NCBI GenBank assembly: GCA_017467815.1
Contig: JAFUKI010000057.1
Span: 4,533-68,532 of the forward strand
Length of the DNA stretch: 64,000 nt
Direction: 5' to 3'
Origin: Clostridia bacterium
Lineage (GTDB): Bacteria; Bacillota; Clostridia; Oscillospirales; CAG-272
Part shown: one piece after another, positions 12,571 through 64,000 of the stretch
Position numbering within the stretch: the stretch's first letter is position 1
Layout of the letters: every line of letters starts with the position of its first letter
Program-made: the position numbers and the translations under genes
Notes under the pieces: model-generated
What the model saw: only the letters and a program-made list of their open reading frames with translations
What the model was told of the DNA's origin: nothing
Database searches by the model: none

Positions 12571-12873
12571 TTTCCCGCGATTTACCACCATTTTCCATCC
12601 CATAATTCCGCTTTATCCATCCGCACCAGCCTTTTTCACCCAATTATTACCAATTTTCTCTTTCCCGGATATTCCCATAAACAGAGCGACATTTTTCGCG
12701 ATTGTTCTGCATTTTTAAACACTGTTTATTTACCATTTACTGGTTTTTGGGAAATCGCAAAACATCTTCCTGTTCAAATTTTATTCAATTATTTTTCATC
12801 TATATTTTACTTTTCAGAACCGAATTTTCCGCCCCACATCTCCTCTGCTGCCAACTTACATTTTCGCCAAATG

Positions 12874-12942
12874 TTGCAAAAACAACAAGAGAAACAGCCT
12901 CGGATACCACTTCCAATACCGTTTCTCTTGTTGTTTTTGCAA
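12874..12942 (-). terminator. 22-bp perfect inverted repeat (hairpin) immediately downstream of nfo
   Basis: TTGCAAAAACAACAAGAGAAAC (12874-12895) and its exact reverse complement (12921-12942) flank a 25-nt loop. There is no clean U-tract on either strand, so a terminator function is uncertain. Confidence 0.35.
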
Positions 12943-12953
12943 AATATTTCTGA

Positions 12954-16840: not shown

Positions 16841-17788
16841 TCATGCACCGGTTATAAACACCGTTATCAGTACAAACAATACCACCGCCACCAGAAACGC
16901 CGGCGAAAATATGGATTCCGCCAGAGCGTTGAAAAAGCCGCCTTTACGCTTCACCGCATAGGGGGATGGCATATTCTGTTTTGCATATCCGCTGTATATA
17001 TTCCCTGCTTCGAAACACAGCAGAACCGCTGCCAGCAGGGTGAAAAAGCTGACAATAATGATAAATAAGATCATGCTGATACTTTGCTTTTCCGCAATGT
17101 GCAGCACGTAGCTTTCCAAAAATAATACAAAAATATTGTTCAGTCCGTGTACCAGCACCGCCGCCGGCAGAGATCGTGTGGCATACACCACAACCGACAG
17201 AATCAGTCCGCTGAAGAAATACACGGGAAATCTGGAAAAACTGAAATGGGACATGGCAAATGTCAGTGCCGATACAAACACAGCCATGGACACACCCAGT
17301 CTCTCGTAGGAAGCCGCCATGATCCCTCTGAACAGGAATTCTTCCGTCACAGCAGGCAGGACGGCAAATGCCAGCACCAGATACAATCCGTCAAAGATAC
17401 CGGCGTTGCGGGCAAAGGCAGTGTAGGTATCCGCACTTCCCACCGCAAAACTTTCGGGGAATAAGGTATACATCCCCACACTGATCAGCGCACTTCCGCC
17501 GATCAGCAGAACCGCCGCATACAGCAGAAACAGACAATGGCTGAAGGACGGCAATTTCAGTCTCAGCCTGTCCCGGAATTCACTTCCGCGGATCCGGCAG
17601 TAGAATAAGGACGGCAATGCATAGACAAGCAGCTGCAGAACCACTGCCGCCAGATAGGGATTTTCCGCAAGGCCCAGCTGTTTTTCCCCCAACGAACCGG
17701 TTGACAGCAGCCAGCTTCCGCTCCCCAGCAGCAAAAATACGCAGACAAGGAGAATCGGCGCAAAAACTGTATCTTTACTTTTCACCAA
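16841..17788 (-). CDS. CPBP (CAAX) family intramembrane glutamic endopeptidase
   Basis: Polytopic protein with the family motifs EEFLFRG, FAMSHF and HGLNN. Confidence 0.85.
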   Translation of the reverse strand: MVKSKDTVFAPILLVCVFLLLGSGSWLLSTGSLGEKQLGLAENPYLAAVVLQLLVYALPSLFYCRIRGSEFRDRLRLKLPSFSHCLFLLYAAVLLIGGSALISVGMYTLFPESFAVGSADTYTAFARNAGIFDGLYLVLAFAVLPAVTEEFLFRGIMAASYERLGVSMAVFVSALTFAMSHFSFSRFPVYFFSGLILSVVVYATRSLPAAVLVHGLNNIFVLFLESYVLHIAEKQSISMILFIIIVSFFTLLAAVLLCFEAGNIYSGYAKQNMPSPYAVKRKGGFFNALAESIFSPAFLVAVVLFVLITVFITGA

Positions 17789-48290: not shown

Positions 48291-48679
48291 ATAAGAGTAC
48301 AATAATTACAAAGCAATTACTACGTTCCGCTGCAAGCGTAGGACGAACATGAACATAAATGAAGTAAATGAAGATATTTACGGAAGCAGTAAAGCGGACT
48401 TTATCTCGATAGATTACATATTTCTCTCCGTAAACAGGGGAAAGTATTGATCGGCTTCCATTGTTGCAATGCACAAGCTTGATTGCTTATGATCTTGACA
48501 GATCGCTTCCCTCAACTTACCGATCTTTTTTGTCCGTCTTTCACAATGCATTTTAGCAGATGCGAATTGCCAAAAACGCCGTATTGGTGGGGTCTGAACT
48601 TAAATGACCGGCTTCTTTTAAGAATATCTTACAGCTTTCAAATGCCCCCTTGACAAAACCTAATAGGAGAAATAAATAT

Positions 48680-50893
48680 ATGGAAAGATCTTATTTTTTC
48701 AAGAACGCTGTATGGGTCGGGAAAGCCGAGAGAACAGCAAAGACATTTTCCGTTCTTCGTGGACGCTTCCATGTCAACTCGATCCAAAAAGTGACGCTTA
48801 ATGTTTTGGGACTTGGCTTTTTCAAGTGTTACATAAACGGCAGATGTATCAACCCCGATACATTTTTGCCGCTTTCATCGGATTTTGAGGCTACCTGCGA
48901 CCCGATAGACGAGGTGATCTCAGGACACAGAGTATACGTCCCGAGTTTTGATATAACCAGATTCGTCACGCCGGGCAAAAATGTTATTGCCATTCACTTC
49001 GGCGGCGGATGGTACACGCACAGCGCCCGTGTATTCGGGCTTCCGAAGGCGATTTACTGCATTTTCGCCGAAGATGTCGATGGTGGTGTACACCACTTTG
49101 TTTCAGATCAAAACTGCCGCATAGGTGACGGGTATGTTTCAGACTATGAGTTTGTAAAATACGAGAGCCACGACTATGATCTTCCCAATGACTGCCTCGG
49201 CGTAGATTTCGATGACAGTGCTTGGGAAAACGCCTCTCTCACCGAGGCACTTGATACCGATTATTTTTCTACCGATTGTCCCGTCGACGCGCTTATCCGC
49301 GAGCTTTCCGTAAAGGTGGTCGGAAAGAGTGGAGACCGCACAGTTTACGACTGCGGAGAAAATACCACAGGATATCCCGTTCTTATGCTGAAAGCAAAGC
49401 GCGGCGAAACGGTAAGCGTCCGCTTTTCCGAGGAGCTGCTCCCCGACGGAGATCTTGACCCCAAACATATCCAAGGACAGAATTATTCGGTACTCTCAGA
49501 CGGTACCGAACGCACTGTTCAACCGGAATTTACCTGGTACTGCTTCAGATATTTCGAAGTGACTGGGGATGCTGTCCCCAAATGTGTTAAGGTGATACAC
49601 GCCGACATTGCACCATCGTCTACCTTTGAATGCGATAACGAAACGCTGAACTGGACGTACAATACCTTTATACACACCATGCTCTGCAACATGCACACAG
49701 GACATCCTTCGGATTGCCCGCATCTTGAACGCCGCGGTTATACCGGTGACGGTCAGCTCACCTGCCACGCCACGTTATCCGTGCTTGACGCCAGGAAATT
49801 TTATGAAAAATGGTTGTACGACATCGCTGACTGTCAGGATACTGTCAGCGGTCATATCCAGTACACAGCTCCATATGTAAGAAGCGGCGGAGGTCCCGGC
49901 GGATGGGGATGCGCTATCGTTGAAGTTCCGTATCAGCTTTATAAGCATTATGGAGATATCGACATACTTTCAAAATACTACGGCAATATGTGCCGTTACA
50001 TCGACTATCTTGAGGCTCATTCGGAGTTCGGACTCGTCACAAGCGATAAGGAGGGGGAATGGTGTCTCGGAGATTGGTGCGGTCCAAATATACTTTATCC
50101 GGAAAAGGACATCACCTCTCATAATCAGCAGATCATTATTCCCGCACCATATGTAAACACCTACTTTATGGTGAAATCACTTGAGACCATGCGGAAGATC
50201 GCGATCATAATGGGCAAGGACGAAGACATAGCCAAATATGACGAAAAGATCAAATTACGCAAGCGCGCTATTCAAGCCGCTTATTTCAACACCCTTGACG
50301 GAAACTTTGTTATGAATGCTCAGGGTGCTAATTCTTTTGCCGTTGACCTTGGACTTGGGAATAAGACTACCTATGCCAATATGGTAAATTACTATAGGAA
50401 GCTTGGGTATTTCGACACAGGTATCTTTGCCACCGACGTGCTCATGCGTACGCTGTTCGAACACGGCAACGCGGAACTCGCAGTAGACATTCTCACCAAC
50501 AACGGCAGTCAGGGATACGAGCATTGGAGACAGAACGGAGCAACTACCTTCCACGAGTACTGGGACAGTAACAGAAGCCGCTCTCACTGCCACCCGATGT
50601 TCGGAGCACCCGTAGCGTACTTTTTTGAATATCTCTTAGGCATAAAACAGACAGAAGCGTCCTGCGGATATTCCGAACTGGTCATAAGCCCCCAAGCTAT
50701 ATCGAAATTTAACAGAATGTCGGGAAGCATGGATACTCCCAAGGGTACCGTTTCGGTAAGCTATGAAAGAACGGGCGGAGAAGTGAGATTCAATATTTCC
50801 GTTCCCGCAGGCTGCAAGGCGGACTTCCGTATCCCATCATATGTGCGTACTCTTAACGAAGGAGAGAACGAATTTTTCATCTCTGAGCAATAA
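48680..50893 (+). CDS. Glycoside hydrolase family 78-like protein (alpha-L-rhamnosidase family)
   Basis: ATG 48680 after AGGAGA. The N-terminal FFKNAVWVG...LGLGFFKCYINGRCIN resembles the rhamnosidase N-domain. HTGHPSDCPHLERRGYTGDGQ matches the DCPxRER(L/R)G(W/Y)TGD signature of the six-hairpin catalytic domain. Confidence 0.8.
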   Translation: MERSYFFKNAVWVGKAERTAKTFSVLRGRFHVNSIQKVTLNVLGLGFFKCYINGRCINPDTFLPLSSDFEATCDPIDEVISGHRVYVPSFDITRFVTPGKNVIAIHFGGGWYTHSARVFGLPKAIYCIFAEDVDGGVHHFVSDQNCRIGDGYVSDYEFVKYESHDYDLPNDCLGVDFDDSAWENASLTEALDTDYFSTDCPVDALIRELSVKVVGKSGDRTVYDCGENTTGYPVLMLKAKRGETVSVRFSEELLPDGDLDPKHIQGQNYSVLSDGTERTVQPEFTWYCFRYFEVTGDAVPKCVKVIHADIAPSSTFECDNETLNWTYNTFIHTMLCNMHTGHPSDCPHLERRGYTGDGQLTCHATLSVLDARKFYEKWLYDIADCQDTVSGHIQYTAPYVRSGGGPGGWGCAIVEVPYQLYKHYGDIDILSKYYGNMCRYIDYLEAHSEFGLVTSDKEGEWCLGDWCGPNILYPEKDITSHNQQIIIPAPYVNTYFMVKSLETMRKIAIIMGKDEDIAKYDEKIKLRKRAIQAAYFNTLDGNFVMNAQGANSFAVDLGLGNKTTYANMVNYYRKLGYFDTGIFATDVLMRTLFEHGNAELAVDILTNNGSQGYEHWRQNGATTFHEYWDSNRSRSHCHPMFGAPVAYFFEYLLGIKQTEASCGYSELVISPQAISKFNRMSGSMDTPKGTVSVSYERTGGEVRFNISVPAGCKADFRIPSYVRTLNEGENEFFISEQ

Positions 50894-51203: not shown

Positions 51204-51866
51204 TCAGTTCTGGACGACCATCTCAGGCAAATTCATTTCCGCAAGGAATTTACCGTAGATCTCATCTTCTGCATTCTGCCGTGCCTTAACAGCGTCGTCA
51301 TAATTACTGTAAGTACCCAAATACAGAAGTTTGCCCTGAAATCTCAAGCGAACATACCACTTGTTTTGCTTCTTATGCCAATATACGCCGCGTGTGCCGC
51401 TGGTGTTGGCAGCAGTCGGTTTCATGTCCTGTATCTTGGATAGCTGTGTACCGCCGACAAAACCGGCTGACTGGGTCATGGTCTTCACATTGCTGTTCCG
51501 CAGGCAGTTTATGCACATTCTTTCCTTCTCATCATTGAGTGAACTGCTTATACGGTATACTATCTCTCCGCACTCACATCTGCATTCCCACACCGGGAAC
51601 AGCATACTGCCGCGCTTAAGCTTTTCCTCTGTCCGTCTCAGCACTGTAAGTTTACCGAAAACTTTACCTGTTAAATCGGGGGATCTAACACAGCCGCAGC
51701 TTATTACGTGACCGTTCTTCAGATTGCCGGTAGTGACGCTGTGTGTATTTCCGCAATCACAGAGACAATTCCAACGCCGGTGTCCGCTTCCGTCAGATGG
51801 CAATAAATCCTTTACAACAAGTTTCCCAAACCGCTGTCCGGTTAAATCTTCATACTTCTTTGTCAC
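51204..51866 (-). CDS. AP2-domain DNA-binding protein with two N-terminal Cys4 modules
   Basis: 220 aa. Two repeats of LTG(Q/K)xFGKLxV...WxCxC(D/E)CG...C(G/x)C. The C-terminal GVYWHKKQNKWYVRLRFQGKLLYLGTYSNYDDAVKAR is an AP2/integrase-DNA-binding-type fold signature. Confidence 0.75.
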   Translation of the reverse strand: MTKKYEDLTGQRFGKLVVKDLLPSDGSGHRRWNCLCDCGNTHSVTTGNLKNGHVISCGCVRSPDLTGKVFGKLTVLRRTEEKLKRGSMLFPVWECRCECGEIVYRISSSLNDEKERMCINCLRNSNVKTMTQSAGFVGGTQLSKIQDMKPTAANTSGTRGVYWHKKQNKWYVRLRFQGKLLYLGTYSNYDDAVKARQNAEDEIYGKFLAEMNLPEMVVQN

Positions 51867-51929: not shown

Positions 51930-51967
51930 AAAAGTCCTTCCATGAAAACTGTCATAGAAGGACTTTT
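51930..51967 (-). terminator. Hairpin terminator downstream of the cohesin/SLH gene
   Basis: An 11-bp perfect stem, AAAAGTCCTTC (51930-51940) / GAAGGACTTTT (51957-51967). On the minus strand the stem ends in UUUU, followed by AUUGCAUUU. Confidence 0.55.
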
Positions 51968-52029: not shown

Positions 52030-53604
52030 TCAGCCCAGTACATTCAGAGCACAATTATAGATCATAATGGCAACCTGAGCACGGGATGCGGGGCTCTGAG
52101 GATCGATAGCCGTGCCGGGAACATAAATCTTTTCAGCAATCGCCCATTCCATTGCTTCAACTGCCCAGTCAGCAACTTCAGCGCCATCCTTGTATTCATC
52201 AAGATCTGCACCGTTTTCTACAGTGTATCCTGCAAATTCAGTATAGCGGGCAATGATGGTTACAGCCTGTTCGATGGTGATCTCATCTTCTACGCCGAAT
52301 GTGTCATCGCCGTATCCGAGAACAATACCGTTTTCAGCAGCCCATTCTACGTAAGCAGAATAGTATTCACCGGTCTTGACATCCTTAAAGCTGGTGTCCG
52401 TGTAGAGAGATGTATTTACATTGTGCAGTCTGCCGAGAATGGTAACGAACATACCACGGGTGATGGTCATGTCGGGACCGAACTTGGTATCGGAAATACC
52501 ATTCATGATACCCTTCTTGTACAGGTATTCAACTGCTTCATAGCAGCTGTCGGTGGGTTTGATATCTGTGAAGGGAATCGCTGCGTTCTTCTTAAAGGTT
52601 ACATCAATGGTCTTATCGGAACGTACATTGGTGAATGTGTATTCTTCCACAGCTCCGATTTCCTTGCCATCTACCATAACGGAAGCGATTTCGTAACCGT
52701 CATCCGCCTTAATGGTATAAGTCAGAGAACCATTGTATTTTACCTGAGTTTTTCCTTCGGGTGTAATTGTACCGCCTTCACCGGCAGTTGCGGTGATGGT
52801 GTACTTCTGGCTGTGCATCATCATGATCCACATGAACCACTGTTCGAAATCAAACTGGTTATCGTTCTTGGGAATTACCTGACCTTCGTCAATCATGGTA
52901 CCGCAATCAGAACAATATACATCACCGGTATAGCCGTCTTCTTTGGAGGTAGCATCCTTATGACCGCGAACTTCCAGTTCACCTACGTGGTTGGTAGGGT
53001 CTACGTCGCCATATGCAAATGTTTCAGAGGATACAACACCACAATCTTCGTTTGCACAAACCTTGTAGTAAACCGCGGGGGAGATACAGGTTGCAGCAGA
53101 CTTCAGATACTTTGCATCAACAACTTCTGCATATGCAGAGTGTGTGCAGGGAACCGTTACGGAACCGGAAGTTACGGAAGCAGAGAATGTATCGTCTTTT
53201 GTTCCGATCTTATCCATCACAACGGTAACGTCAAACTCCCCACTTGCCCCATCAACAACTTCGAAAATAGCTGTTACCAGAACACCGTCATCAGTAACAA
53301 GATCTGTACCAGCATATGTAACTTTACCGGTTTCAGTATTGGCTACGAACACTCCATCGTCAGACAATTCACCTGCTTCAACACGTACAAGTTTTAAATC
53401 GCCCGGATAAGAAATGGAAAAACCATATGCAGTGAAACCGGAATTACCTTTCAGTGAAATGCTTACAGCAGCTTCACCACTAACTGCAGTAGTATTGGAC
53501 ACAATTACCTCGGTACCAACACCCGCTGCAAACACTGTCATTGCCATGCTGTTTATAAACAGCATGACAACCAACAGAATACTCAAAAGTTTTTTCATAA
53601 TCAA
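52030..53604 (-). CDS. Cell-wall-anchored cohesin protein (signal peptide, cohesin, Cys-rich segment, B-repeat-like module, three SLH repeats)
   Basis: Signal peptide MIMKKLLSILLVVMLFINSMAMTVFA. The cohesin-like beta-sandwich pattern is VIVSNTTAVSGEAAVSISLKGNSGFTAYGFSISYPGDLKLVRVEAGEL...DGVLVTAIFEVVDGASGEFDVTV. The C-terminal PFTDIKPTDSCYEAVEYLYKKGIMNG..., FKDVKTGEYYSAYVEWAAENGIVLG... are SLH repeats. Confidence 0.85.
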   Translation of the reverse strand: MIMKKLLSILLVVMLFINSMAMTVFAAGVGTEVIVSNTTAVSGEAAVSISLKGNSGFTAYGFSISYPGDLKLVRVEAGELSDDGVFVANTETGKVTYAGTDLVTDDGVLVTAIFEVVDGASGEFDVTVVMDKIGTKDDTFSASVTSGSVTVPCTHSAYAEVVDAKYLKSAATCISPAVYYKVCANEDCGVVSSETFAYGDVDPTNHVGELEVRGHKDATSKEDGYTGDVYCSDCGTMIDEGQVIPKNDNQFDFEQWFMWIMMMHSQKYTITATAGEGGTITPEGKTQVKYNGSLTYTIKADDGYEIASVMVDGKEIGAVEEYTFTNVRSDKTIDVTFKKNAAIPFTDIKPTDSCYEAVEYLYKKGIMNGISDTKFGPDMTITRGMFVTILGRLHNVNTSLYTDTSFKDVKTGEYYSAYVEWAAENGIVLGYGDDTFGVEDEITIEQAVTIIARYTEFAGYTVENGADLDEYKDGAEVADWAVEAMEWAIAEKIYVPGTAIDPQSPASRAQVAIMIYNCALNVLG

Positions 53605-53645
53605 TTCTCCTTATTTTTGATATAATTTTGATATATCTAAGAATT

Positions 53646-56600
53646 TTACTCAGCAGGGAATACAGTGATCAAACCAACATAATATTCAAGAATAAGTTGT
53701 GCATCGAACATATCAATGATATTATCAGCATTGACATCAGCCAAAGAAAGTGCGATTTCGTTAGCATCAATCAAGTCAACATAATATTCAAGAATAAGCT
53801 GAGCATCAAACATATCAACTACACCGTCAAGGTTTGCATCGCCCAGCAGTCCTTCTCTGGTAATATCCAGAGCATTATAAATACTGTCAGCATCAATATT
53901 TTCCACATAAGTTGTGTTGGTATTGATCGCGGCATATACGAAGAAGTGCTGATTCAGAACGGCAACAGCGGCATCTACGTATTCGGCAACAGCGCTGAGG
54001 TCGATATTGAGTTCAGCGGGAAGTACAGCCTGCAGTGCTTCTGTGGGATCGATAAGACCGGTCACAACAACCTGTGCATCAGGAGCCGCTTCGCGAATGT
54101 CATTCAGAACTGCGGGGAATTCCACTGCGAATTCGAAATAACTGTACAGAACATTTTCCAAAGCTGCAACAGCCAGTTCAAGAACAGGGATCTCAACTTT
54201 AATATCGGGATCAAATCCAAGGAGATCGGGACTTGCCAATTCTGCACCCAGGTCGAAGATGACAACAGGTTCTTCGATCTGTTCGCTGAGAACAGTTTCT
54301 GCAATGCTGAGGATTTCATCTTTTGCCTTGATTGCAGCGGCATCAAACTTGCTCCAGTCAAGTTCTTTGACCTTTGCATTCATGTCGATGCCCATTTCGG
54401 TCATGTATTCAACGATGGTATCGCCGAATATGCCGTTCAGCAAACCTGCCAGATCTTCGTTAGCCTTAACTACTTCGACAACCATACCCATTGCCTGAGC
54501 ATAAGCAAAGGATACAAATTCATTCATATCAAAGGTTACCGTAACCAGGTCAGCCTTAGCAACTTCGTCAAGGTAATCTTCATTCAGAGCGAACTGCGCA
54601 TATTTATCGTCCAGACCGAGTTTCTCTGCAAGAGCAGCCGCATAGTCGGATGTACCCAGTGCAACATAGTAAGAATCGTAATCGATGGTATATTCGCCGT
54701 GAGTCGTGTCATAAATTACATATTCAAGAGCAGCCTTGATGGACTCTATACCGCTTTCTGTGGTTTCGGCGATATCAGCTGCAGCTTCGACCATGATATC
54801 TGCAACAGCCACAACTTCATTACCGATGTTGTCGGCAGCTTCAGTTACAGCTTCAATAATCACACCGGCAGCTTCGAGAACAGTTTCTTCATATGCATCG
54901 ATTGCAGTATCAATAACCTGGACAGCAGGATCTACTGCAGCGAAGATTGCAGCAGCAGATGCGCCATAAGCTGCAAGTGCATCGGAATAGATGGTGCCAG
55001 CTGTGATGGTAACGATAGCATCTACCTGCTTTGCAAGGGTATCTGCAGTAGTGATGAGCTTCATTACATCACCTTCTGCGATTTCATAGATGTCTGCAGC
55101 TACATTTCCAAGAGCTGTCAGAACGTCACCAGTCTGTGCAAGAGCATTCTTAGCATCGTCAATGGTTTCTACGCTTTCAAGGGTAGCAATGACATTATCC
55201 ACGATTGCTTCGATTTCGTCCTGCTTTGCAAGGAGAGCAGATTCGGAATAAGTCAGTTCAACAGCTTCAACAAGTGCATAGAGCTGCTTGCCTGCATCAG
55301 CAATCTTCGCATTGGTGGAAGCAGACAGCTTGATAGCTTCTGCTTTAATAGTATCCAGTGCAGGAGTTACCACTTCAGTAATATCGTTTACAGCTGTTTC
55401 GGTAGCGGCAACAATTTCTTCAACAGCATCGGCGACAGTCTGGCAAACAACATCCATGGTATCGAGAACAATAGCATCGATGTTTGCTGCTGCGGTCTCC
55501 ATTGCTGCAATGGTATCTTCGTAACCGGAAGTAACTACTGCGATGAATTCTTCAACTTCCATACCGGTTGTATCGAGGAATACATCCACAGGGGAACCTT
55601 CTTCAATATAATTCAGAAGTTCGGAGATATAGGGGATGAGCTTTTCATAAGTTGCAGCAAGGAGCTTCAGAGAAGCATTTGCTTCGTTTACAAGTGCTTC
55701 AGCTTCAGCAGCAAGTTCTTCAACCTGAGCTATTATAGCCTTAACTTTTTCAACGGTAAGTTCAGCTTCGTTTTCAATCTTGTTGATAACATTCTCAACA
55801 TTCTGTGCGAATGCTTCGAGCTGAGCTATGAAATCATTTACCTTTGCAAGCGTGTTTTCCAGTTCAGCAACGATGGCTGCAACTTCTTCATCAGCATATT
55901 CTTTAAGAACATTCAGAACAGCATTGATATCGTCTGCAACGGCTTTGAGTTCATCAATCAGAGCGTAAATTTCGCTGAGATCGATATCTTCAAATTCAAC
56001 ATCGTCAATAAAGTCTTTTACATCGTTGATAAGGTCATTGATGATGTCTTCAATAACAGCCTCAGTAACACCGCCGAGTTCCAGAGTGTTGTCAATGATC
56101 AGAGTCAGGAGATCACCGACCATCTGGTCAAAGCGGCCATCGAACCAATCCGCATACTGACTGCCTGCATTTTCGGCAACATCAACCATATCCTGGAGAG
56201 CATCAAAGCTCTTGCGAAGCATATCAGCAACTGCAGGATCCACTTCTTCGTCGATCACTTCGATGATAGCGTCAACAAGTTCACCCTGGAAGCTTATGAG
56301 CTGATCTTCGAGAGCATTCAGGATCTGTTCGTAAGCGAGAGCAGAAGAAACAGGATTCTTCATCATCTCATCTTTAACAGTTTCAATTTCTGCCTTGATC
56401 TCATCAATTCTATCGATGATTTCCTGTACCTGTTCGCTGTTGTATACTGCATCAGCGATGGCTTCGATATCGGATGCAAGGACAGCGGAAATTGCAGTAA
56501 TGATCACCTTGATATCATCGGATGCGGCTGCAGCAGCTGCGATAAATTCTGTCACAGCATCATCACCTGCAGCGTAGATGATAGCAAGCGCTTCAGCAGG

Positions 56601-59600
56601 GGTTTCAGTGAGATATTCACGAACAGCGGCACCAAGTGCGGGGTCAACCTTGTCAGCCAGCTGACCTACGGATTCAACCCAGGCTGCATATTCTTCGTTG
56701 AATTCTTCAACACCGTTTGCGATCCAAGCATATGCTTCGTTTGCGATGGTTTCAACAAGATCTGCGTAGTAGTTTACGGTGTCAGTAAACTGATCGATGT
56801 AAGGATCTACAACAACACCAAGTTCATTTGCGAGAGCAAGGATATTGTTGCGGTGTGTGTAGAGATCTTCTTCAAGATCAAGGATCGCTGCCCAGGTGTC
56901 ATCGATGTTATCGTTACCGAGGACAGCCTTGATCTCTTCAAGAGTTGCGACAGTTGCATTCAGTTCATTGAGAAGCTTTGCTTTAACTTCATTAAGCTGT
57001 GCGTCAACAGCGGTTTCGTCAACAAATTCGATTGCTGCTTCAACGCCGTCGATAGCCACATCAATGTAGTCCTGAGCCTGTGCAATGTAGCCGTTAGCTA
57101 CTGCCTGCGCATAAGCGTACTTGTATGCTTCTTTGAGGTTTGCAACAGTTTCATCTTTGGGGGTGTATTCGGTTTCGTATGCATTAAGTACTGCTGCATA
57201 CAGAGCATCGTGACCGGCTTCGGAAGGATGAGAACCGATACCGTTACCGATTATACAACGAGCAAACAGAGCCAACAGACCTGCCAGTTCACTATTAGCA
57301 ACAGTATCACCCAGAACATCGGGCATTACCAGCAGAGTGCAGAGCTTATTGGCAATTCCGACAACACCATCGTTCAGTGTTGTAACAGCGTCATCCACAA
57401 AACCCTTAACAGTATTGACTACAGTATCCACACCGGCGATAGCTTGCTTCAAGGAATTTACAGTACCAACTGTATTATCTTCGCCTGTATCATAAAATCC
57501 CTTGAGCTGTTCCGCAGTATACTCACTATTTTCAGCCATAAAATCATAGATAGCATCTTCGCCGCCCAGATACAGAGCCTTGACATCATCAGCTTCCAGC
57601 TGTTCGGCGGACTGATCGGCAACAATCTCATAAGCCTTGGTCAGATCAGCACCGGTGTACAGATCAGCCACATCTTCTGCGGAAAGGGCATAGTCACCGG
57701 AGTTAGCAGCCACCAGAGCATAAGCAACAGCCAGAACTGCATCATCGCCGCCCTTAACCATGTCAACAACCTGTTCTGCATTCACCATGTCATTGGATCC
57801 ACCAGCTACAAATACAGCAACTACATCCAGTTTAGTTGCACCTGCAGCAGCAGCGGCATCCGCAAAATCCTCCATAATGGAGCTGAAAGGATCTCCGTCG
57901 AGAAGTGAGCCAAGACCCATAATAGAATTGATTCCTACGGGAGTGTTCTTGCTTTTTACGATTGCCCTATCAAATGCAAGGTACATGGAGATGGAGGTAG
58001 CCTTCTCGGTATTGGTAGGCTCAACCGCATACGAAAGCTTGCCTGCATCGTTCAGATCTTCATAATCTTCGATTTCTTCCAGAGTAATGGGAACAACCGC
58101 TTCACCCAGCAGATCCCAAACCATACCGTCACCATTTTCGCCAACGATAGATTCTACGAAACGGTCGCGAACGGTATCATCAGTAATAGGATACTCATAA
58201 GTATCAACGATAGCCTGTACATAGTCTGCTTCTGCCCAGTAGAAGGTTGCTTCATCATATACGCTATTTTCTACAGCCTGCATATAGGTAGGCAGAGCAG
58301 CGATATATGCGTTCAGAGGTACGAACAGATAGTCCATAATCTCGCCCAGTGTTACATCCGCAGTAATTGCGCGGGAGGCATTGGACTTGATAGTATTCAT
58401 CAGTGCAACCAGAATAATCTCTGCGTCGGGATTCAGCTGAAGAATAGCTTCAACAGTACCGGCGTAGTTCAGTGCATAGCTGATGATAGAATACATAAGC
58501 GTGTTGTAAAGAGCCTCAACAGTGCTGGTACCTTCGACACCGTCATCTGCTACCAAACCATATTCTGCCAGGATCTTATCAACTTCACCCAGAAGTACGA
58601 GAAGTTCACTCTTCATCGTAGGATCACACTCATTAAGAGCGTTTTCTATGTCGTACTTCATAGCATCTTCAGGTTCGCCGCCGTCAAAGCCGATGGCTTC
58701 CATGATGCGGCCGAACATAAATACGCCAAAGTTACCGTTACCCATTCCGAGAGAGATAACGTCAGCGTTTGCTACGGATTCCTGATAGTATTTTGCAACG
58801 ATCTTCAGTGCGTCGATGTCGCTTTCGTAGGCATCTTTAGCATCATCGGTAGAGAATGCTGCACCGCCATCTTTACCTTCAATGCAGTATGCTGCAACGT
58901 CAAAACGATAGTTGTTCACCAGTTGATCCCATGTCCAGTAGTCACCGTTTGTGAATACAGAGTACCACAGGTCTTCATCCCAACCGTCTTGCAGTTCATT
59001 GATTACCTCTACAACTGCAGGATCGTCGTAATCGACTTCAAGCAGCCAATGCAGGTCTTCTGCACGCATAGCAGACATAGCCAACTGTGCATGGTTGAAT
59101 CCGAAGTAATCAGCAAACTGGTTTGCATAGGACTCATCACCGTAGTCTTCAACACCGGTATTGCCATCGTACCCTTCAAGACCATAACCATTGCTCATGG
59201 AGTCGCCGAGGGAAACGTAGTTTTTATTACTATAAACCTGGAATTCTGAGAAACCATTTTTGTTCACGAATTCAACAAAATACTGACCATTCTTATACTG
59301 AACAAGCAGATTCTTGTGTGTATACTCGGTTCCATCGTCCTTAACGTGAACTACAGTTATCTTTTCGCCTTCAACAGCAAAACCTACGGGCAAAGGAATA
59401 ATAACAGTAACAGCCACACCGGTCAAATCGATGGCCTTGCTGTCAACGATCTGTTGTTTACCGTCACCCTTAGCAACAACCTGTACAACAGGAGTAATAT
59501 CAAGAACGAGAGTCTTGTTTTCAGCAGAGTCTACTTCAACAGACTTCACTTCAACATTCATAGCGGACTCAGTGATGATCTCTTCGGGAACGAAATCAGT

Positions 59601-60881
59601 AACGGCTGCCAAAATTTCGTCTGTATCACTCATCACTTCATTCTGTGCTGCAGTAATAGCATCAGTAAGTGCTTCTTGATTGTCTTCGTCCGCAGTAATC
59701 TCGATGTTGGATACAGCTTCCACTACATCCTGTGTAACATCATCGGGAACCACGGGAGCAATAGTACCACCGGAAACATTGGGTTCTGCGGGCACGATAT
59801 TCTCAGTAGTCTTAACAACCTTATATCCATCAGCAACCTGTACTGCAATCAGATCGTATTTTTTCAACATATCCTGAGATGCATTTCCTGCAGTATCTTT
59901 GTCATATGCTATTCCGTCATAGGTGAAAGTACCTGTTCCGGTAGTATTATACGCCTTACCAGAAATAAGATTATCGCTCAAATCAACATCATCGGTAATA
60001 TTGGCAGACAATTTTCCAGTAAATTCACATTCGGTAAATGATGTTGTTGTTCCGTCTTCGTTATGCCATACACCGGCAATACCGCCCATTTCTTCTACGT
60101 CAGCAGCTTCGCCTGCATCAGTGATAGTCACATCACCGGAGCACTTAACATTCACTAAATTATTACCGTAATGTGCGATACCAATGATACCACCGACGTC
60201 ACAAGTAGAACCGATTACATCAATATCAGAGGTGATATTCTTGAAAGTGTGACCACCTTCACCAGCAAAACCAATGACACCACCTACGTATGTACGATAC
60301 GCTTTACCGTCTTCAATGGAATATGCCTTAACATAACTTGTTTCATCTACATCAACGGTAATGTCAGTCCAGTTTGCGTAAGCATTCTTACCACCAACAC
60401 CACCAACATATGCCAAACCATTTACTTCTACGTGACCGGTTACTTTGATATTGGTATACTCAGATGTATAGGGAGTACCCACTACAGTCCCAACATTACA
60501 ATAACCGGAAACATCAGCATTATTAACAGTCAAATTCTTGACTTCACCATTGGTTGTAAAACCAAACAAACCAACATTACTATTATTTCCGGTGATTACC
60601 AAATTGGAAATCACATGGTTATCTCCATTGAATGTTCCCTGGAACTTATTCGATGAATTGCCAATCGGAATCCATTCCTCATTGTTCAAGTCAATGTCAG
60701 CGGTAAGTGTTACCGTTTTTCCACTATACGTGTCACCGGCATTGACTTTATCACGAAATTCTTTCAATTCCGCGAGTGTACTAATGTTCACAACATCATC
60801 GTCCGCCGCAAAAACCCAAACAGGTGTCACGGACAGAATCATTGTGAGCACAAGCACAAATGATAGTAGCCTTTTCTTCAT
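53646..60881 (-). CDS. Giant (2,412-aa) secreted acidic protein: GLUG-motif region, expanded SGNH/GDSL hydrolase-like domain, ~1,100-aa Ala/Glu/Asp/Ile/Val-rich helical region, C-terminal dockerin
   Basis: ATG 60881 after GGAGGT. Signal peptide MKKRLLSFVLVLTMILSVTPVWVFA. GLUG-type repeats (NVGLFGF, YVGGVGG, YVGGVIGFAG, DVGGIIGIA, MGGIAGV). SGNH block I VSLGDSMSNGYG (Ser codon ~59200) and a block V-like SHPSEAGHD (~57220). A dockerin duplicated F-hand, DANLDGVVDMFDAQLILEYYV / DVNADNIIDMFDAQLILEYYV (53649-53850). Confidence 0.88.
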   Translation of the reverse strand: MKKRLLSFVLVLTMILSVTPVWVFAADDDVVNISTLAELKEFRDKVNAGDTYSGKTVTLTADIDLNNEEWIPIGNSSNKFQGTFNGDNHVISNLVITGNNSNVGLFGFTTNGEVKNLTVNNADVSGYCNVGTVVGTPYTSEYTNIKVTGHVEVNGLAYVGGVGGKNAYANWTDITVDVDETSYVKAYSIEDGKAYRTYVGGVIGFAGEGGHTFKNITSDIDVIGSTCDVGGIIGIAHYGNNLVNVKCSGDVTITDAGEAADVEEMGGIAGVWHNEDGTTTSFTECEFTGKLSANITDDVDLSDNLISGKAYNTTGTGTFTYDGIAYDKDTAGNASQDMLKKYDLIAVQVADGYKVVKTTENIVPAEPNVSGGTIAPVVPDDVTQDVVEAVSNIEITADEDNQEALTDAITAAQNEVMSDTDEILAAVTDFVPEEIITESAMNVEVKSVEVDSAENKTLVLDITPVVQVVAKGDGKQQIVDSKAIDLTGVAVTVIIPLPVGFAVEGEKITVVHVKDDGTEYTHKNLLVQYKNGQYFVEFVNKNGFSEFQVYSNKNYVSLGDSMSNGYGLEGYDGNTGVEDYGDESYANQFADYFGFNHAQLAMSAMRAEDLHWLLEVDYDDPAVVEVINELQDGWDEDLWYSVFTNGDYWTWDQLVNNYRFDVAAYCIEGKDGGAAFSTDDAKDAYESDIDALKIVAKYYQESVANADVISLGMGNGNFGVFMFGRIMEAIGFDGGEPEDAMKYDIENALNECDPTMKSELLVLLGEVDKILAEYGLVADDGVEGTSTVEALYNTLMYSIISYALNYAGTVEAILQLNPDAEIILVALMNTIKSNASRAITADVTLGEIMDYLFVPLNAYIAALPTYMQAVENSVYDEATFYWAEADYVQAIVDTYEYPITDDTVRDRFVESIVGENGDGMVWDLLGEAVVPITLEEIEDYEDLNDAGKLSYAVEPTNTEKATSISMYLAFDRAIVKSKNTPVGINSIMGLGSLLDGDPFSSIMEDFADAAAAAGATKLDVVAVFVAGGSNDMVNAEQVVDMVKGGDDAVLAVAYALVAANSGDYALSAEDVADLYTGADLTKAYEIVADQSAEQLEADDVKALYLGGEDAIYDFMAENSEYTAEQLKGFYDTGEDNTVGTVNSLKQAIAGVDTVVNTVKGFVDDAVTTLNDGVVGIANKLCTLLVMPDVLGDTVANSELAGLLALFARCIIGNGIGSHPSEAGHDALYAAVLNAYETEYTPKDETVANLKEAYKYAYAQAVANGYIAQAQDYIDVAIDGVEAAIEFVDETAVDAQLNEVKAKLLNELNATVATLEEIKAVLGNDNIDDTWAAILDLEEDLYTHRNNILALANELGVVVDPYIDQFTDTVNYYADLVETIANEAYAWIANGVEEFNEEYAAWVESVGQLADKVDPALGAAVREYLTETPAEALAIIYAAGDDAVTEFIAAAAAASDDIKVIITAISAVLASDIEAIADAVYNSEQVQEIIDRIDEIKAEIETVKDEMMKNPVSSALAYEQILNALEDQLISFQGELVDAIIEVIDEEVDPAVADMLRKSFDALQDMVDVAENAGSQYADWFDGRFDQMVGDLLTLIIDNTLELGGVTEAVIEDIINDLINDVKDFIDDVEFEDIDLSEIYALIDELKAVADDINAVLNVLKEYADEEVAAIVAELENTLAKVNDFIAQLEAFAQNVENVINKIENEAELTVEKVKAIIAQVEELAAEAEALVNEANASLKLLAATYEKLIPYISELLNYIEEGSPVDVFLDTTGMEVEEFIAVVTSGYEDTIAAMETAAANIDAIVLDTMDVVCQTVADAVEEIVAATETAVNDITEVVTPALDTIKAEAIKLSASTNAKIADAGKQLYALVEAVELTYSESALLAKQDEIEAIVDNVIATLESVETIDDAKNALAQTGDVLTALGNVAADIYEIAEGDVMKLITTADTLAKQVDAIVTITAGTIYSDALAAYGASAAAIFAAVDPAVQVIDTAIDAYEETVLEAAGVIIEAVTEAADNIGNEVVAVADIMVEAAADIAETTESGIESIKAALEYVIYDTTHGEYTIDYDSYYVALGTSDYAAALAEKLGLDDKYAQFALNEDYLDEVAKADLVTVTFDMNEFVSFAYAQAMGMVVEVVKANEDLAGLLNGIFGDTIVEYMTEMGIDMNAKVKELDWSKFDAAAIKAKDEILSIAETVLSEQIEEPVVIFDLGAELASPDLLGFDPDIKVEIPVLELAVAALENVLYSYFEFAVEFPAVLNDIREAAPDAQVVVTGLIDPTEALQAVLPAELNIDLSAVAEYVDAAVAVLNQHFFVYAAINTNTTYVENIDADSIYNALDITREGLLGDANLDGVVDMFDAQLILEYYVDLIDANEIALSLADVNADNIIDMFDAQLILEYYVGLITVFPAE

Positions 60882-61109: not shown

Positions 61110-62864
61110 TTATCTCTGCGCCCAGCTGACGTAATCAAATTGGGCATACTGAATCTCAAGTGTACGATAATCGTTCTTGCCGGATCCGGTTAAAGGAATA
61201 CTGTCCACAGCGATTACCGCTACAGGTCTTCCCCGTTCTTCCAGACGCGTCTGGCATTCATCATAAATATTCCGGCATACACTCTCGAAATCAGCCACAT
61301 CAGCAAGTTCCACAACTACCAGCGGATACTGTCCCTGACTGTGTTCACGGTCATCCACGCCGATTACGCAGCTGTTGCGCACAACGGGGTTCTCCGTAAC
61401 CATACTCTCAATATTAACCGGGAATACCTTATGTCCGTCAAAACGGGTGATCATCCGTTTTACACGCCCTTTAATAAACAGGAAACCATCTTCATCCATA
61501 TATCCGATATCGCCGGAATGAACCCAGATCTGTCCGTCATCATGGCGGCGCATAACATAATCTGTCTCCTCGGGGCGATTGTAATACCCCTTCATCATGG
61601 ACGGACCGGTAACACAGATTTCCCCTTCTTCGCCGATGTTCTTCTCCTCACCCGTATCCGGATCGAAAACAGAAACCGTGGTCGTAATAGAAGGGATCCC
61701 TACACTGCCCGCCTTGTATATATCATTCACACAGAAGGATGCCGCAGCGGACAACTCCGACATACCATATCCCTGCGCCAGAGGATAACGGATATTGTGT
61801 GCCTTCATAAAGGCATGCAGTTTGCCTTCCAATCCTTCGTTCATGGTATCCCCGCCGGAACCCATGGTGATCAGGAACGAAAGATCGAAATTCTTCATTT
61901 CTTTGCTCTGCATCAGTGTCTCATAGAATGCAGGCGTACTGATCATATGGTTGGGACGGTAGTTCTTTACCAATTTCCCGATGGTCGCCGGTACAAAACG
62001 GGGGATCAGAATCAATTCAAACCCCATACACAACGGCATATGCATACCGCAGACCATTCCGTAAGAGGTAAATACCGGAATAATCCCGAGGAAACGGTCC
62101 CCAGGCTTTATGTAAAGTCCGGCATATTTAAAATTATAGGAAACAGCGTTGACACTGTCATTGGTGAGCATAACACCTTTCGGGAAACCGGTCGTTCCGC
62201 CGGTGTATGCGATAGCCATGGTTGCGTCACCGACATACGGTGCTTCAACGGCAGTCACACCCTTACCTTTACCCAGGAAAGTATCCCAGTCCATAAGGTA
62301 GTCACCGTTATAGCGGATCTTTTCCGGAGAAGCTATCTTCATGGCGATCTTCTTTCCAAGAGGAAGAGATCGTGCCGCTGACTGTACGATTATATGTTTT
62401 TGATGGATCTCTCCCATGATCGGTTCAATTTTCGGGAATACCATGCCGATTATCACAAGCACGGAAGAACCGGACTCCTGAACCATGCGGCGGATGCTGT
62501 CCTTATCCATACGGGGATCAATGGTATTCGCCGTTGCCCCAAGTTTATTCAGCGCGTAAATAGCCGCTACGCATTCGGGTACTGCTACGGAAACGAAAGA
62601 TACTATATCCCCCTGCTTCACACCCAGCGCAGCAAAGGCATTGGCACAGGCATCAATATTCTCAAAAAGTTGTGCGTAGGATATTTTCTTTCCGTAATAA
62701 CAGAGAGCAGGACTGTTCAAATGATCCTGATTTGCCTGTTTCAGATATGTATATGCTGTACATGCCGGCAAGGACTGACGAAGGTTTTCTTCGGAATAGA
62801 ATTTCAGCCACGGCTTTTGTTCGGAAGGTCTTCTGCTTTTATTGACAGTTTCTATTTTTTTCAT
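61110..62864 (-). CDS. AMP-dependent synthetase/ligase (acyl-CoA synthetase family)
   Basis: 584 aa. AMP-binding core motif AYTGGTTGFPKGV, QGYGMSE, and HSGDIGYMDEDGFLFIKGRVKRMI with a C-terminal GKNDYR lysine motif. GGAGAG Shine-Dalgarno. Confidence 0.9.
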   Translation of the reverse strand: MKKIETVNKSRRPSEQKPWLKFYSEENLRQSLPACTAYTYLKQANQDHLNSPALCYYGKKISYAQLFENIDACANAFAALGVKQGDIVSFVSVAVPECVAAIYALNKLGATANTIDPRMDKDSIRRMVQESGSSVLVIIGMVFPKIEPIMGEIHQKHIIVQSAARSLPLGKKIAMKIASPEKIRYNGDYLMDWDTFLGKGKGVTAVEAPYVGDATMAIAYTGGTTGFPKGVMLTNDSVNAVSYNFKYAGLYIKPGDRFLGIIPVFTSYGMVCGMHMPLCMGFELILIPRFVPATIGKLVKNYRPNHMISTPAFYETLMQSKEMKNFDLSFLITMGSGGDTMNEGLEGKLHAFMKAHNIRYPLAQGYGMSELSAAASFCVNDIYKAGSVGIPSITTTVSVFDPDTGEEKNIGEEGEICVTGPSMMKGYYNRPEETDYVMRRHDDGQIWVHSGDIGYMDEDGFLFIKGRVKRMITRFDGHKVFPVNIESMVTENPVVRNSCVIGVDDREHSQGQYPLVVVELADVADFESVCRNIYDECQTRLEERGRPVAVIAVDSIPLTGSGKNDYRTLEIQYAQFDYVSWAQR

Positions 62865-62995
62865 TGGCTCTCCATAAATTAAGGGTTCATAGTTAAACGA
62901 ACATACGGTAGGACAAAATCAGTATTTTGTTCCCTGTGATACAGGTTTGATGAATTTTTTAAACAAAAAAATAAAGCAGCACCATGTTGGTGCAC

Positions 62996-63068
62996 AAAAA
63001 AACGCGTAATGACAAGGACACAAAAAAAGCTGCATTTGTGCCCTGTCTTTTACGCGTAAATTTTTTTT
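62996..63068. terminator. Long bidirectional terminator hairpin
   Basis: ACGCGTAATGACAAGGACACAAA (63002-63024) pairs imperfectly with TTTGTGCCCTGTCTTTTACGCGT (35-57). An A6 run lies on the left (62996-63001) and a T8 run on the right (63061-63068). Confidence 0.7.
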
Positions 63069-63099
63069 GGAAATCTATTGAAATATTTTTCAAAATCTA

Positions 63100-63128
63100 T
63101 TGAAAAATATATTTTCTTGTGATATACT
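63100..63128 (+). promoter_or_regulatory. Near-consensus sigma-A promoter TTGAAA-17-TGaTATACT (currently pointing right)
   Basis: TTGAAA at 63100-63105, a 17-nt spacer, TG at 63120-63121, TATACT at 63123-63128. It is preceded by a tandem duplication of AAATCTATTGAAA (63071-63105). Confidence 0.6.
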
Positions 63129-63246
63129 CTATATGTATATTAGTGTTCTGATATTTTGGCATTGTTTTCATATGTCAAAATACTGATTTTGTCTTGCCGG
63201 TAAACTCCGGCATATTTTCTATGACAGTCAAAATACTGATTTTGTC

Positions 63247-64000
63247 CTATACGATCAGACATAGTTTTTCGAGTTGATGCTCGTATTCCGTGGCTGTTGT
63301 TATCAGATAAATGCGGGTCGTATCAATACTGCTGTGTCCAAGTACATCTGCCAGTCTGACAATATCCTTGCACGCCTTATAGAACACAGTGGCAAACAAA
63401 TGTCTGAGGTTATGCGGAAACACCTTGGTGTGTTCCACTCCGGCTTTTGTACAGATATTTTTCATCTCTGCCCATATTTGTTTACGCGACAGACTTTTTC
63501 CGTTGTTTGTGAGAAATATTTCTCCGGCAGCGATTTTTTGTTTTTTGGCGTACTGCAGTAATTTACGGCATAATTTTTTCGGCAGAAGAATACTGCGGAT
63601 CTTCCCTTTGAGAGATATTTCCGTTCTTGCATTTTTTGCCGCAGAAACAGTGATATACTTCAGCTCAGAAACACGTATTCCGCTGGCACATATTGTCTCC
63701 ATCAAGAGTGCAAGTCTTTCCTTGCCCATACCGTATGCTGTTTCAATAAGACGTTCATATTCTGCCCGTGTCAATTCTCTGGATTTTTCACGAAACAGTT
63801 TTCGCTGTATTTTCAAAAACCGCAGCCGGCAGTCATCGCGTCCGATATAATGAAAGAAACCGTTGAGTGCCGCAATCATCGAATTCACGGTAACAGCTGC
63901 ATACTGATTGTTGACAAGCTCGTCCCGCCATGCAAGCGCTATCTCCCGGCTCAAGGATCTACAGCCAAGAAAACACGCGAATTTTTGGATGTCGCGAAGA
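63247..64000 (-). CDS. Tyrosine recombinase (integrase/invertase family); N-terminus lies beyond the right window edge
   Basis: Catalytic signature ASGIRVSEL (Arg), HNLRHLFAT (HxxR), LGHSSIDTTRIY (His ... Tyr nucleophile). My own translation shows the frame stays open upstream of the track start (TTG 63954) to position 64000 (...LRDIQKFACFLGCRS-LSREIALAWRDEL). Confidence 0.88.
   Translation of the reverse strand, partial: LRDIQKFACFLGCRSLSREIALAWRDELVNNQYAAVTVNSMIAALNGFFHYIGRDDCRLRFLKIQRKLFREKSRELTRAEYERLIETAYGMGKERLALLMETICASGIRVSELKYITVSAAKNARTEISLKGKIRSILLPKKLCRKLLQYAKKQKIAAGEIFLTNNGKSLSRKQIWAEMKNICTKAGVEHTKVFPHNLRHLFATVFYKACKDIVRLADVLGHSSIDTTRIYLITTATEYEHQLEKLCLIV

Follow-up and report, generated by a model that had tools for sequence, protein, structure and literature searches.

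We describe here a two-gene unit in which a giant secreted protein with a C-terminal dockerin is encoded immediately upstream of a cohesin protein equipped for attachment to the cell wall. The unit lies in a stretch of 64,000 nucleotides (nt), hereafter the window, from a Clostridia bacterium (assembly GCA_017467815.1, contig JAFUKI010000057.1, positions 4,533 to 68,532). Cohesin-dockerin pairs have mostly been studied as the glue of cellulosomes. On the basis of sequence comparisons, we read this unit as a self-contained, non-cellulosomal display system in which the dockerin and the cohesin would form a private cognate pair, an interpretation to which we give a probability of roughly three in four. 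Together with genes for an ANL-family acyl-CoA-type ligase and a small DNA-binding protein, the two genes make up a cassette that is rare and accessory, and a recombinase switch beside the cassette probably turns it on and off. Coordinates of all features are collected in Table 1.

The dockerin of the giant protein and the cohesin of its neighbor

The longest reading frame of the giant gene opens at TTG 60983, and ATG 60881 is preceded by GGAGG with a 7-nt spacer. With this ATG as the start, the protein comprises 2,411 amino acids (aa) followed by a stop codon at 53648-53646. A sequence-only reading of the same DNA had given 2,412 aa and a signal peptide; the length required correction and the signal peptide did not. 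That reading had also placed the cohesin gene at 53604->52030, and here the gene stands with a revised start, ATG 53598 (AGGAG 8 nt upstream) being preferable to TTG 53604. The 522-aa length of the resulting anchor protein agrees with an identical database record (P0008). The two genes share a strand as proposed, and with the ATG start the gap between them measures 47 nt instead of 41. Within this gap there is no terminator-like site and no stable fold (z = -1.2), in line with the earlier claim that no terminator separates the genes. A terminator hairpin had been placed behind the second gene at 51930-51967, and its stability bears this out: the free energy is -24.1 kcal/mol (z = -8.3), lower than in 200 of 200 shuffled sequences, and a U-rich run follows. 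Sec-type signal peptides, evident from the sequence, open both proteins, again as described earlier. Database searches returned 202 homologues of the giant, and a search of NCBIfam gave nothing useful for either protein.

The C-terminal module of the giant scores 26.3-27.2 bits against Pfam Dockerin_1 (PF00404) and 31.7 bits in the genome-wide scan, above the cut-off of 22.9. Its two loops, DANLDGVVDMFD and DVNADNIIDMFD, are 12 residues long with Asp or Asn at positions 1, 3, 5, 9, and 12, and each is followed by the helix AQLILEYYV. The score and the presence of the calcium-ligand positions in both loops uphold the assignment as a canonical dockerin with duplicated F-hands. In characterized dockerins, such symmetry accompanies a dual binding mode.

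The single cohesin-like module predicted in the anchor was assessed by profile and by fold. Against Pfam PF00963 (cut-off 24.1), the excised module scores 22.0 bits, and the genome search returns 23.8 bits, or 24.2 with neighboring stretches included. A profile built from eight modules of the family matches solved cohesins (4ums, E 2.6e-11; also 5m2o, 5aoz, and 6kgc). The AlphaFold model of the module (predicted local distance difference test, pLDDT, 80; predicted template modeling score, pTM, 0.74) contains nine strands, and the top 20 Foldseek matches to it in the PDB are all cohesins, with query TM-scores of 0.64-0.77; among them are OlpA, Clostridium perfringens modules, and an Archaeoglobus fulgidus module. 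Full-length relatives of the anchor align at 34-46% identity, those at 34-35% identity carry the Pfam cohesin mark, and the partner protein of locus L017 reaches 49.8 bits with the Pfam cohesin model. Family profile and predicted fold together confirm the N-terminal module of the anchor as a cohesin. The same profile identifies 2,248 relatives in a representative library of 1.84 billion proteins, many with several cohesin stretches and many small, with one cohesin after a signal peptide. At the other end of the anchor, the three SLH repeats claimed earlier are recovered by Pfam as three C-terminal stretches.

Between the cohesin and the SLH repeats, the InlB-type repeat scores 23.0 bits against Flg_new_2 (cut-off 23.6), and the cysteines of this middle region are kept across the family. 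The Cys-rich module (roughly GH..W.....C......C..CG; window 52813-53148, anchor aa 151-262) also occurs in P0004, P0006, P0250, P0253, and the anchors of L048 and L050. It is found in cohesin anchors of many lineages, with dozens of copies in the 3,149-aa dockerin protein P0004, and no Pfam match to this short module was seen. A strongly hydrophobic, Met-rich, conserved stretch, FEQWFMWIMMMH (window 52780-52830, anchor aa about 255-265; EELILIMMLMG in relatives), stands just N-terminal of the InlB-type repeat, in the middle of a secreted anchor protein.

Conserved gene order and joint replacement of dockerin and cohesin

A giant dockerin protein followed immediately by a cohesin protein recurs in ten diverged lineages: the window; L011/L012/L013; L014; L015/L016; L017; L018; L048; L049; L050; and G039, a genome of the window's own family. 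Between lineages, the cohesin modules are 24-64% identical and the ligases 47-99%. The cohesin is N-terminal throughout these partner proteins, and the device that attaches them to the wall or membrane varies. SLH-type anchors are found in the window, L011, L013, L014, L015, and L018; sortase-type anchors (VPPTG, TPPTG, or APSTG, a membrane helix, and a basic tail) in L048, L050, and G039; and a Pro/Thr linker with a membrane helix in L049. In L017 a sortase gene adjoins the anchor gene. Moreover, some homologues of the giant carry fused SLH repeats (P0148, P0162) or a CWB2 domain (P0147) in place of the dockerin, which indicates that the C-terminus of the giant is its wall-attachment end.

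The comparison of L011 with L018 bears directly on the pairing. Their ligases are 99% and their AP2 proteins 98% identical, and the bodies of their giants are 88-100% identical per 25-aa window up to the first residues of the dockerin. Past the start of the dockerin, identity falls to 72, 52, and 44%; in the cohesin module it is 12-60%, and within the SLH region it returns to 96-100%. This collapse of identity from the start of the dockerin to the SLH region indicates that dockerin and cohesin were replaced as one block. When L015 is compared with L018, the ligases are less similar (81%), and the dockerins (78%) and cohesins (64%) are more similar. Across nine pairs, dockerin identity correlates with cohesin identity (Mantel test, rho 0.51, p 0.003). 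Judged from these identities, the dockerin and the cohesin are inherited and exchanged together.

A dedicated pair of one passenger and one anchor had been proposed for the window. Synteny, the swapping of anchor types, the fused anchors, and the block replacement support it, and the giants of L048 and L049, which share dockerins, depart from it. In L048 (10001-24294), the giant and cohesin genes are tandemly duplicated; the bodies of the two giants are 72% identical and their dockerins 100% identical, and the cohesin genes behind them, which encode 377 aa, are likewise 100% identical. In L049, a single cohesin gene lies between two giants with identical dockerins. A scan of genome contigs, dominated by generic dockerin patterns, returned 26 loci, most of them unrelated dockerin proteins without a family-specific cohesin nearby; taxonomically they fall among Clostridia, Oscillospiraceae, and Ruminococcus metagenome-assembled genomes from ruminant and other guts.

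Several observations weigh against a private and jointly expressed pair. The Pfam score of the cohesin is borderline when the window sequence is taken alone. The L050 anchor matches neither the narrow cohesin profile nor Pfam and is assigned by position and architecture only. The block replaced between L011 and L018 also spans the middle region of the anchor, beyond the interacting modules. Dockerin identity also tracks ligase identity (rho 0.75), so that the correlation between dockerins and cohesins partly reflects shared phylogeny. With two passengers and one dockerin type in L048 and in L049, pairing is not strictly one-to-one everywhere. As for expression, a promoter-like site (ATGACA-17-TATAAT, 11/12) on the minus strand within the ligase gene (62133-62161) points toward the giant, a weak promoter-like site (9/12) lies just upstream of the anchor gene, and a strong hairpin stands 3' of the ligase gene. 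Because of these promoter-like sites and this hairpin, ligase, giant, and anchor perhaps do not form one transcript or answer to one control. Finally, the sequencing runs that contain the window sequence are gut-metagenome DNA runs only.

The modules of the passenger and the associated ligase

The passenger had been described as carrying a GLUG head, an SGNH esterase-like domain, and no carbohydrate-active module. The first two assignments fail as Pfam matches on the window sequence itself and hold at the level of the family. For the head, the Pfam GLUG match to the window's copy is not significant (E 1.4), and five of 11 homologous copies match at E 0.01 or better (best E 1.1e-8). A profile of the head-module family matches the IgA1 protease of Streptococcus pneumoniae (6xja, 6xjb, and 7jgj; E 1.7e-9) over residues about 107-332 of that protein (~225 residues). 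Searches of the PDB with single sequences of the head and SGNH pieces found nothing, and family profiles were needed. The head is a mobile module of ~290 aa that occurs at 54-71% identity and in varying positions in 36 other giant proteins; among the homologues of the giant it is freely swapped or absent. Its hosts include RTX-type, beta-helix, and SLH architectures and proteins sorted by the type IX secretion system (T9SS), in which the module is N-terminal, internal, or C-terminal, and its conservation is unusually high given such varied host proteins.

In the first SGNH domain (SGNH1), the GDS serine Ser561, Asn715, and His1218 (blocks I, III, and V) are invariant in 10 homologues of 36-44% identity, and the family profile matches a Streptomyces lipase (5mal, E 1.8e-4) and phospholipase A1 (4hyq). 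SGNH1 is probably an active esterase or lipase. The acidic helical region that follows gives weak, composition-type Pfam matches only, and a stretch that includes it is 43% identical to P0128. The second domain (SGNH2) has GTS in place of GDS in the window and has lost a segment of ~41 residues with the D-G-H motif; it is intact in most relatives, and the G039 homologue passes the Pfam Lipase_GDSL cut-off there. Pfam searches found no glycoside hydrolase domain in the passenger, which agrees with part of the third assertion; the broader wording, that no carbohydrate-active module is present, is unproven because SGNH domains include carbohydrate esterases. Elsewhere in the same accessory block, at 48650-50893 (+), lies a complete GH78 alpha-L-rhamnosidase with four Pfam domains and no dockerin.

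The first gene of the cassette encodes a ligase that matches AMP-binding (243 bits) and AMP-binding_C in Pfam. In NCBIfam its best matches, none of which reaches its cut-off, are to fatty-acid-CoA ligases, and its best solved relatives are 4-coumarate-CoA ligase and FadD8/FadD13. In every lineage with upstream sequence available, the ligase leads the cassette. Among 151 genomes of the family, the core of the giant occurs in three, and ligase relatives of at least 60% identity occur only in the window's genome (G000) and in G039, both with a clear relative of the giant; both giant core and ligase are absent from the genus's two other species. This co-occurrence makes the ligase look like a component of the cassette, and we rejected the notion that it is a housekeeping neighbor. 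We likewise rejected a Dlt-like D-alanylation system, in which an ANL ligase acts with a protein of the SGNH fold, since genes for a carrier protein and for MBOAT are both missing and the ligase matches DltA-type enzymes only distantly. The earlier suggestion that the ligase belongs to one surface system with the pair is supported by synteny and by the co-occurrence with the giant.

The hairpin between the ligase and giant genes (free energy -49.1 kcal/mol, z = -6.8, more stable than 200 of 200 shuffled sequences) leaves co-transcription of ligase and giant uncertain. An Rfam search of the spacer returned nothing credible, and relatives carry terminator-like hairpins at the equivalent position. 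The structure may be an attenuator, a processing site, or a stabilizer between the two genes, and the promoter-like site within the ligase gene could drive expression independently of the switch.

It is conceivable that the passenger is chiefly a non-enzymatic adhesin or spacer fiber, with the SGNH domains as relics and the ligase linked by position only. The degeneration of SGNH2 in the window, a head module common to many adhesin-like giants, and the strong hairpin between ligase and giant are compatible with such a protein. So are the shortcomings of SGNH1: its match to Pfam Lipase_GDSL (E 0.015) is below the cut-off; the best Foldseek matches to its AlphaFold model (pLDDT 68) are GDSL esterases and are weak, with E values no better than 0.016 and a TM of about 0.5 on the target; and its block V, GNGIGSHPSEAGH, has no Asp three residues before the His and so does not conform to DxxH. 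Some active SGNH enzymes, though, work with a Ser-His dyad. Against such a passenger count the SGNH1 serine, asparagine, and histidine, which do not vary at 36-44% identity, in contrast to a head module that is swapped freely or missing altogether, and the restriction of close ligase relatives to genomes with the giant. On balance we consider a purely structural passenger doubtful.

Other dockerins and cohesins of the same genome

The genome encodes six dockerins and two or three cohesin-like modules in total, with two Pfam-level cohesin matches, each a single module. This leaves room for gene linkage without exclusive pairing, that is, for a small shared docking network in place of a private pair: the dockerin of the giant might bind the cohesin of P0006 (CWB-repeat) or P0005 (adaptor-like), or the anchor might hold other dockerin proteins. 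The excess of dockerins, the two different giants with one dockerin type in L048 and in L049, and the cross-reactive networks well known from cellulosomes all fit this arrangement. Several features are difficult to reconcile with it. The dockerin of the giant is the sole one of its sequence type; the other five are of other types, and three of them (P0004, P0007, and a 926-aa leucine-rich repeat protein) are preceded by a common, distinct module and end in ...EW. The gene order is kept in ten lineages, and dockerin and neighboring cohesin were replaced jointly in L011 and L018 between flanking domains that are 88-100% identical. A shared network is therefore improbable in our judgment. Still less credible is the absence of any interaction, with the dockerin-like repeat as a calcium-binding stabilizing or carbohydrate-binding tail, the anchor as an independent S-layer-associated protein, and the giant released: many non-cellulosomal dockerin-like and cohesin-like modules do lack a demonstrated partner, and the Pfam score of this cohesin is borderline, but homologous giants carry fused SLH or CWB2 exactly at the position of the dockerin, the partner is always a cohesin joined to some wall or membrane anchor, and dockerin and cohesin co-vary. 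A private cognate pair thus remains the reading that we prefer.

The other cohesin-like modules of the genome form a separate cluster on contig C43. This second cohesin-dockerin cluster (L009:7046-19945 and L010:115-4416) comprises four proteins. The first two, an NAGPA-type phosphodiester glycosidase of 1,433 aa and the 3,149-aa protein of dozens of Cys-rich repeats, each carry a dockerin. The third, of ~250 aa, has a cohesin-like N-terminus and a divergent dockerin of its own and is possibly an adaptor. The fourth, of 877 aa, combines a cohesin with wall repeats of the choline-binding type.

Two further candidates for the unit in the window were rejected. For a cellulosome or amylosome, there is neither a multi-cohesin scaffoldin nor glycosidase cargo; against a polymorphic toxin paired with its immunity protein count the failure to find any toxin domain and the secretion and wall anchoring of the partner.

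A recombinase, inverted repeats, and a candidate regulator beside the cassette

A site-specific recombinase is adjacent to the cassette in nearly all lineages. Tyrosine recombinases equivalent to that of the window lie upstream of the ligase in L017, L050, and G039, and small serine recombinases accompany the cassette in L011, L013, L015, and L018. In the window, L017, and G039, short inverted repeats flank 250-320 nt upstream of the ligase. Those of the window are 21-24 nt long and 92-100% complementary; those of L017 and G039 are perfect repeats of 24 and 27 nt at the equivalent place, in the interval between tyrosine recombinase and ligase. Within the candidate switch of the window, a promoter-like site at 63100-63128 (+) is directed outward from the operon, and the stretch 62993-62979 (-) resembles a terminator. 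The tie between the pair and a candidate invertible promoter, proposed in the sequence-only reading, gains support, with repeats and recombinase confirmed in the window and equivalent repeats beside tyrosine recombinases in two further lineages. Such a switch would make expression of the giant and anchor genes phase-variable.

In L011, L013, and L018, the entire block from ligase to recombinase lies between inverted repeats of 90-263 nt. They measure up to 263 nt with 90% complementarity in L011 (1421-1683 / 12707-12969), occur also in L013, and lie at 5110-5236 / 17375-17500 around the cassette of L018. The enclosed segment of 11-12 kb begins upstream of the ligase, runs past a serine recombinase of 197 aa, and may be a mobile unit or a segment that inverts the operon as a whole.

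The small AP2-like protein is a recurring member of the cassette and, from its sequence, a candidate regulator. The window's copy is 47-48% identical to a 213-aa protein located between ligase and giant in L011, L013, and L018, and a 157-aa homologue follows the cohesin gene in L050. In L015, a protein with a helix-turn-helix of the sigma-70 region-4 type takes its place.

Table 1. Positions of the cassette, its protein modules, and associated sequence features in the window.
Feature	Position	Strand	Basis or properties
Small protein with two Cys4 modules and an AP2-like DNA-binding domain	51204..51866	-	AP2 E 5.9e-4, below cut-off
Intrinsic terminator 3' of the anchor gene	about 51930..51967	-	18-bp stem followed by a U-rich run
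Cohesin-SLH anchor protein	52030..53598	-	522 aa
Three SLH repeats (aa 342-522), wall anchor	52033..52575	-	Pfam SLH PF00395, E 1.6e-29
Cys-rich region, then InlB B-repeat-like domain (aa 151-338)	52585..53148	-	Flg_new_2
Cohesin module (aa 25-150)	53149..53526	-	Profile and predicted fold
Giant-anchor spacer with ribosome-binding site	53599..53645	-	47 nt
Giant secreted dockerin protein	53646..60881	-	2,411 aa, isoelectric point about 4.05, net charge -336
C-terminal dockerin (aa 2341-2411), ending in ...ITVFPAE	53649..53861	-	Two near-identical F-hands
Second SGNH-like domain, SGNH2 (aa 2051-2340), degenerate	53862..54731	-	
Acidic, alanine-rich helical region (aa 1246-2050)	54732..57146	-	21% D+E, 4% K+R, 18% A
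SGNH1 esterase/lipase-like domain with large helical insertions (aa 551-1245)	57147..59231	-	Profile and invariant residues
Head module (aa 26-330)	59892..60806	-	Homologous to the GLUG-type N-terminal domain of IgA1 protease
Long RNA hairpin right after the ligase stop codon	61000..61097	-	98 nt, without a U-run
ANL-family acyl-CoA / long-chain-fatty-acid-CoA ligase-like enzyme, first cassette gene	61110..62864	-	AMP-binding and AMP-binding_C
Invertible-promoter candidate	62906..63249	.	Inverted repeats 62906-62929, 63176-63199, and 63229-63249
Tyrosine recombinase adjoining the promoter switch	63247..63954	-	Pfam Phage_integrase, 78 bits

Discussion

The features described above suggest a simple route to surface display. 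SLH domains bind secondary cell-wall polymer, and the secreted, OlpA-like anchor would attach in this way and present its single N-terminal cohesin. The giant, exported by the Sec pathway, would then dock on that cohesin through its C-terminal dockerin, presumably in a calcium-dependent manner. The helical region could serve as a stalk, holding the SGNH esterase/lipase and the head of the IgA1-protease type at a distance from the wall, and the recombinase would probably control whether the cassette is expressed.

The surface esterase and the cytoplasmic ligase might be functionally linked, for instance if the ligase activated fatty or other carboxylic acids that the esterase releases. This guess is coherent, and it gains weak support from L048 and L049, where genes for an MFS (major facilitator superfamily) transporter and for TetR precede the ligase. 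Taken to its furthest, the cassette might encode an undescribed, horizontally mobile, and phase-variable surface organelle of gut Clostridia, in which the esterase frees acyl groups, the ligase activates them, and the lock and key of docking are re-assorted as a block. We regard this extended proposal as speculative and, in its entirety, unlikely. If it were true, the esterase or lipase would free acyl groups from host or dietary esters for the cassette's own ligase, and block re-assortment between strains would give each lineage a private docking specificity or provide antigenic variation.

The broader interest of the unit is that uncultured Clostridia of gut and rumen probably reuse the cellulosome mechanism to tether a giant surface protein that is not a glycosidase, through a private pair whose genes are linked. 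L011 and L018, with near-identical cassettes and different dockerin-cohesin blocks, constitute a natural experiment on the evolution of docking specificity, and the dockerin-cohesin variants are candidate orthogonal pairs for protein engineering. The cassette also brings into view a so far uncharacterized protein family of the gut, whose giant members combine SGNH domains with helical regions and are very acidic.

Among known systems, the anchor resembles OlpA of Clostridium thermocellum (also the SdbA/OlpC type), with a signal peptide, one cohesin, and three SLH repeats, and it would likewise tether a dockerin-bearing protein to the wall without a covalent bond. In structure, the OlpA cohesin (3ul4) ranks with the best matches to the window's cohesin (query TM-score 0.76). 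In contrast to the OlpA type, the passenger here is neither a cellulosomal enzyme nor a scaffoldin, the anchor contains the additional Cys-rich and InlB-repeat domains, and the genes for anchor and passenger lie side by side in a cassette that looks mobile. Cohesin and dockerin modules outside plant cell-wall degradation are known from C. perfringens glycosidases and toxins and from A. fulgidus, where they link secreted enzymes to one another, and cohesins of these organisms (2jh2, 2w1n, 2vo8, and 2xdh) are among the top fold matches. Unlike those modules, the pair described here is encoded as a unit and includes an SLH wall anchor as one partner.

The head module is homologous to the N-terminal domain of S. 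pneumoniae IgA1 protease (Pfam GLUG / Peptidase_M26_N); here, however, no M26 metalloprotease domain follows it, and an SGNH domain does. The candidate promoter switch resembles the fimS type, with inverted repeats around a promoter-bearing segment of ~250-320 nt and a tyrosine recombinase upstream of a surface-protein operon. These features are found in the window, L017, and G039. The genes that would be controlled differ from those of fimS-type switches, being a ligase and a cohesin-dockerin pair, and in other lineages the place of this arrangement is taken by a serine recombinase, with long inverted repeats enclosing the entire cassette.

Adjacent cohesin and dockerin genes also have a precedent in ClcC/ClcD of Cellulosilyticum lentocellum, for which the heterodimer was shown experimentally and the complex boosts cellulase activity (PMC13487519). 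The unit in the window differs in its giant GLUG/SGNH/helical cargo, in the wall-anchored cohesin partner, and in the presence of further dockerins in the genome. Ruminococcus flavefaciens ScaE, a sortase-anchored cohesin, and the Ruminococcus bromii amylosome (PMC4611034) likewise place a cohesin on a wall-anchored protein in gut or rumen Clostridia, and the cassette relatives L048, L050, G039, and L017 share sortase-type signals with ScaE. Those systems assemble many carbohydrate-active enzymes on multi-cohesin scaffoldins, whereas the cassettes described here carry one or two giant non-glycosidase passengers.

Single-cohesin SLH anchors (OlpA), adjacent minimal pairs (ClcC/ClcD), and non-cellulosomal modules (C. 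perfringens and archaea) are thus already known. What is new is the family of cargo proteins, the cassette context of ligase, regulator, and recombinase switch, the rarity and accessory status of the cassette, and the block exchange of dockerin together with cohesin.

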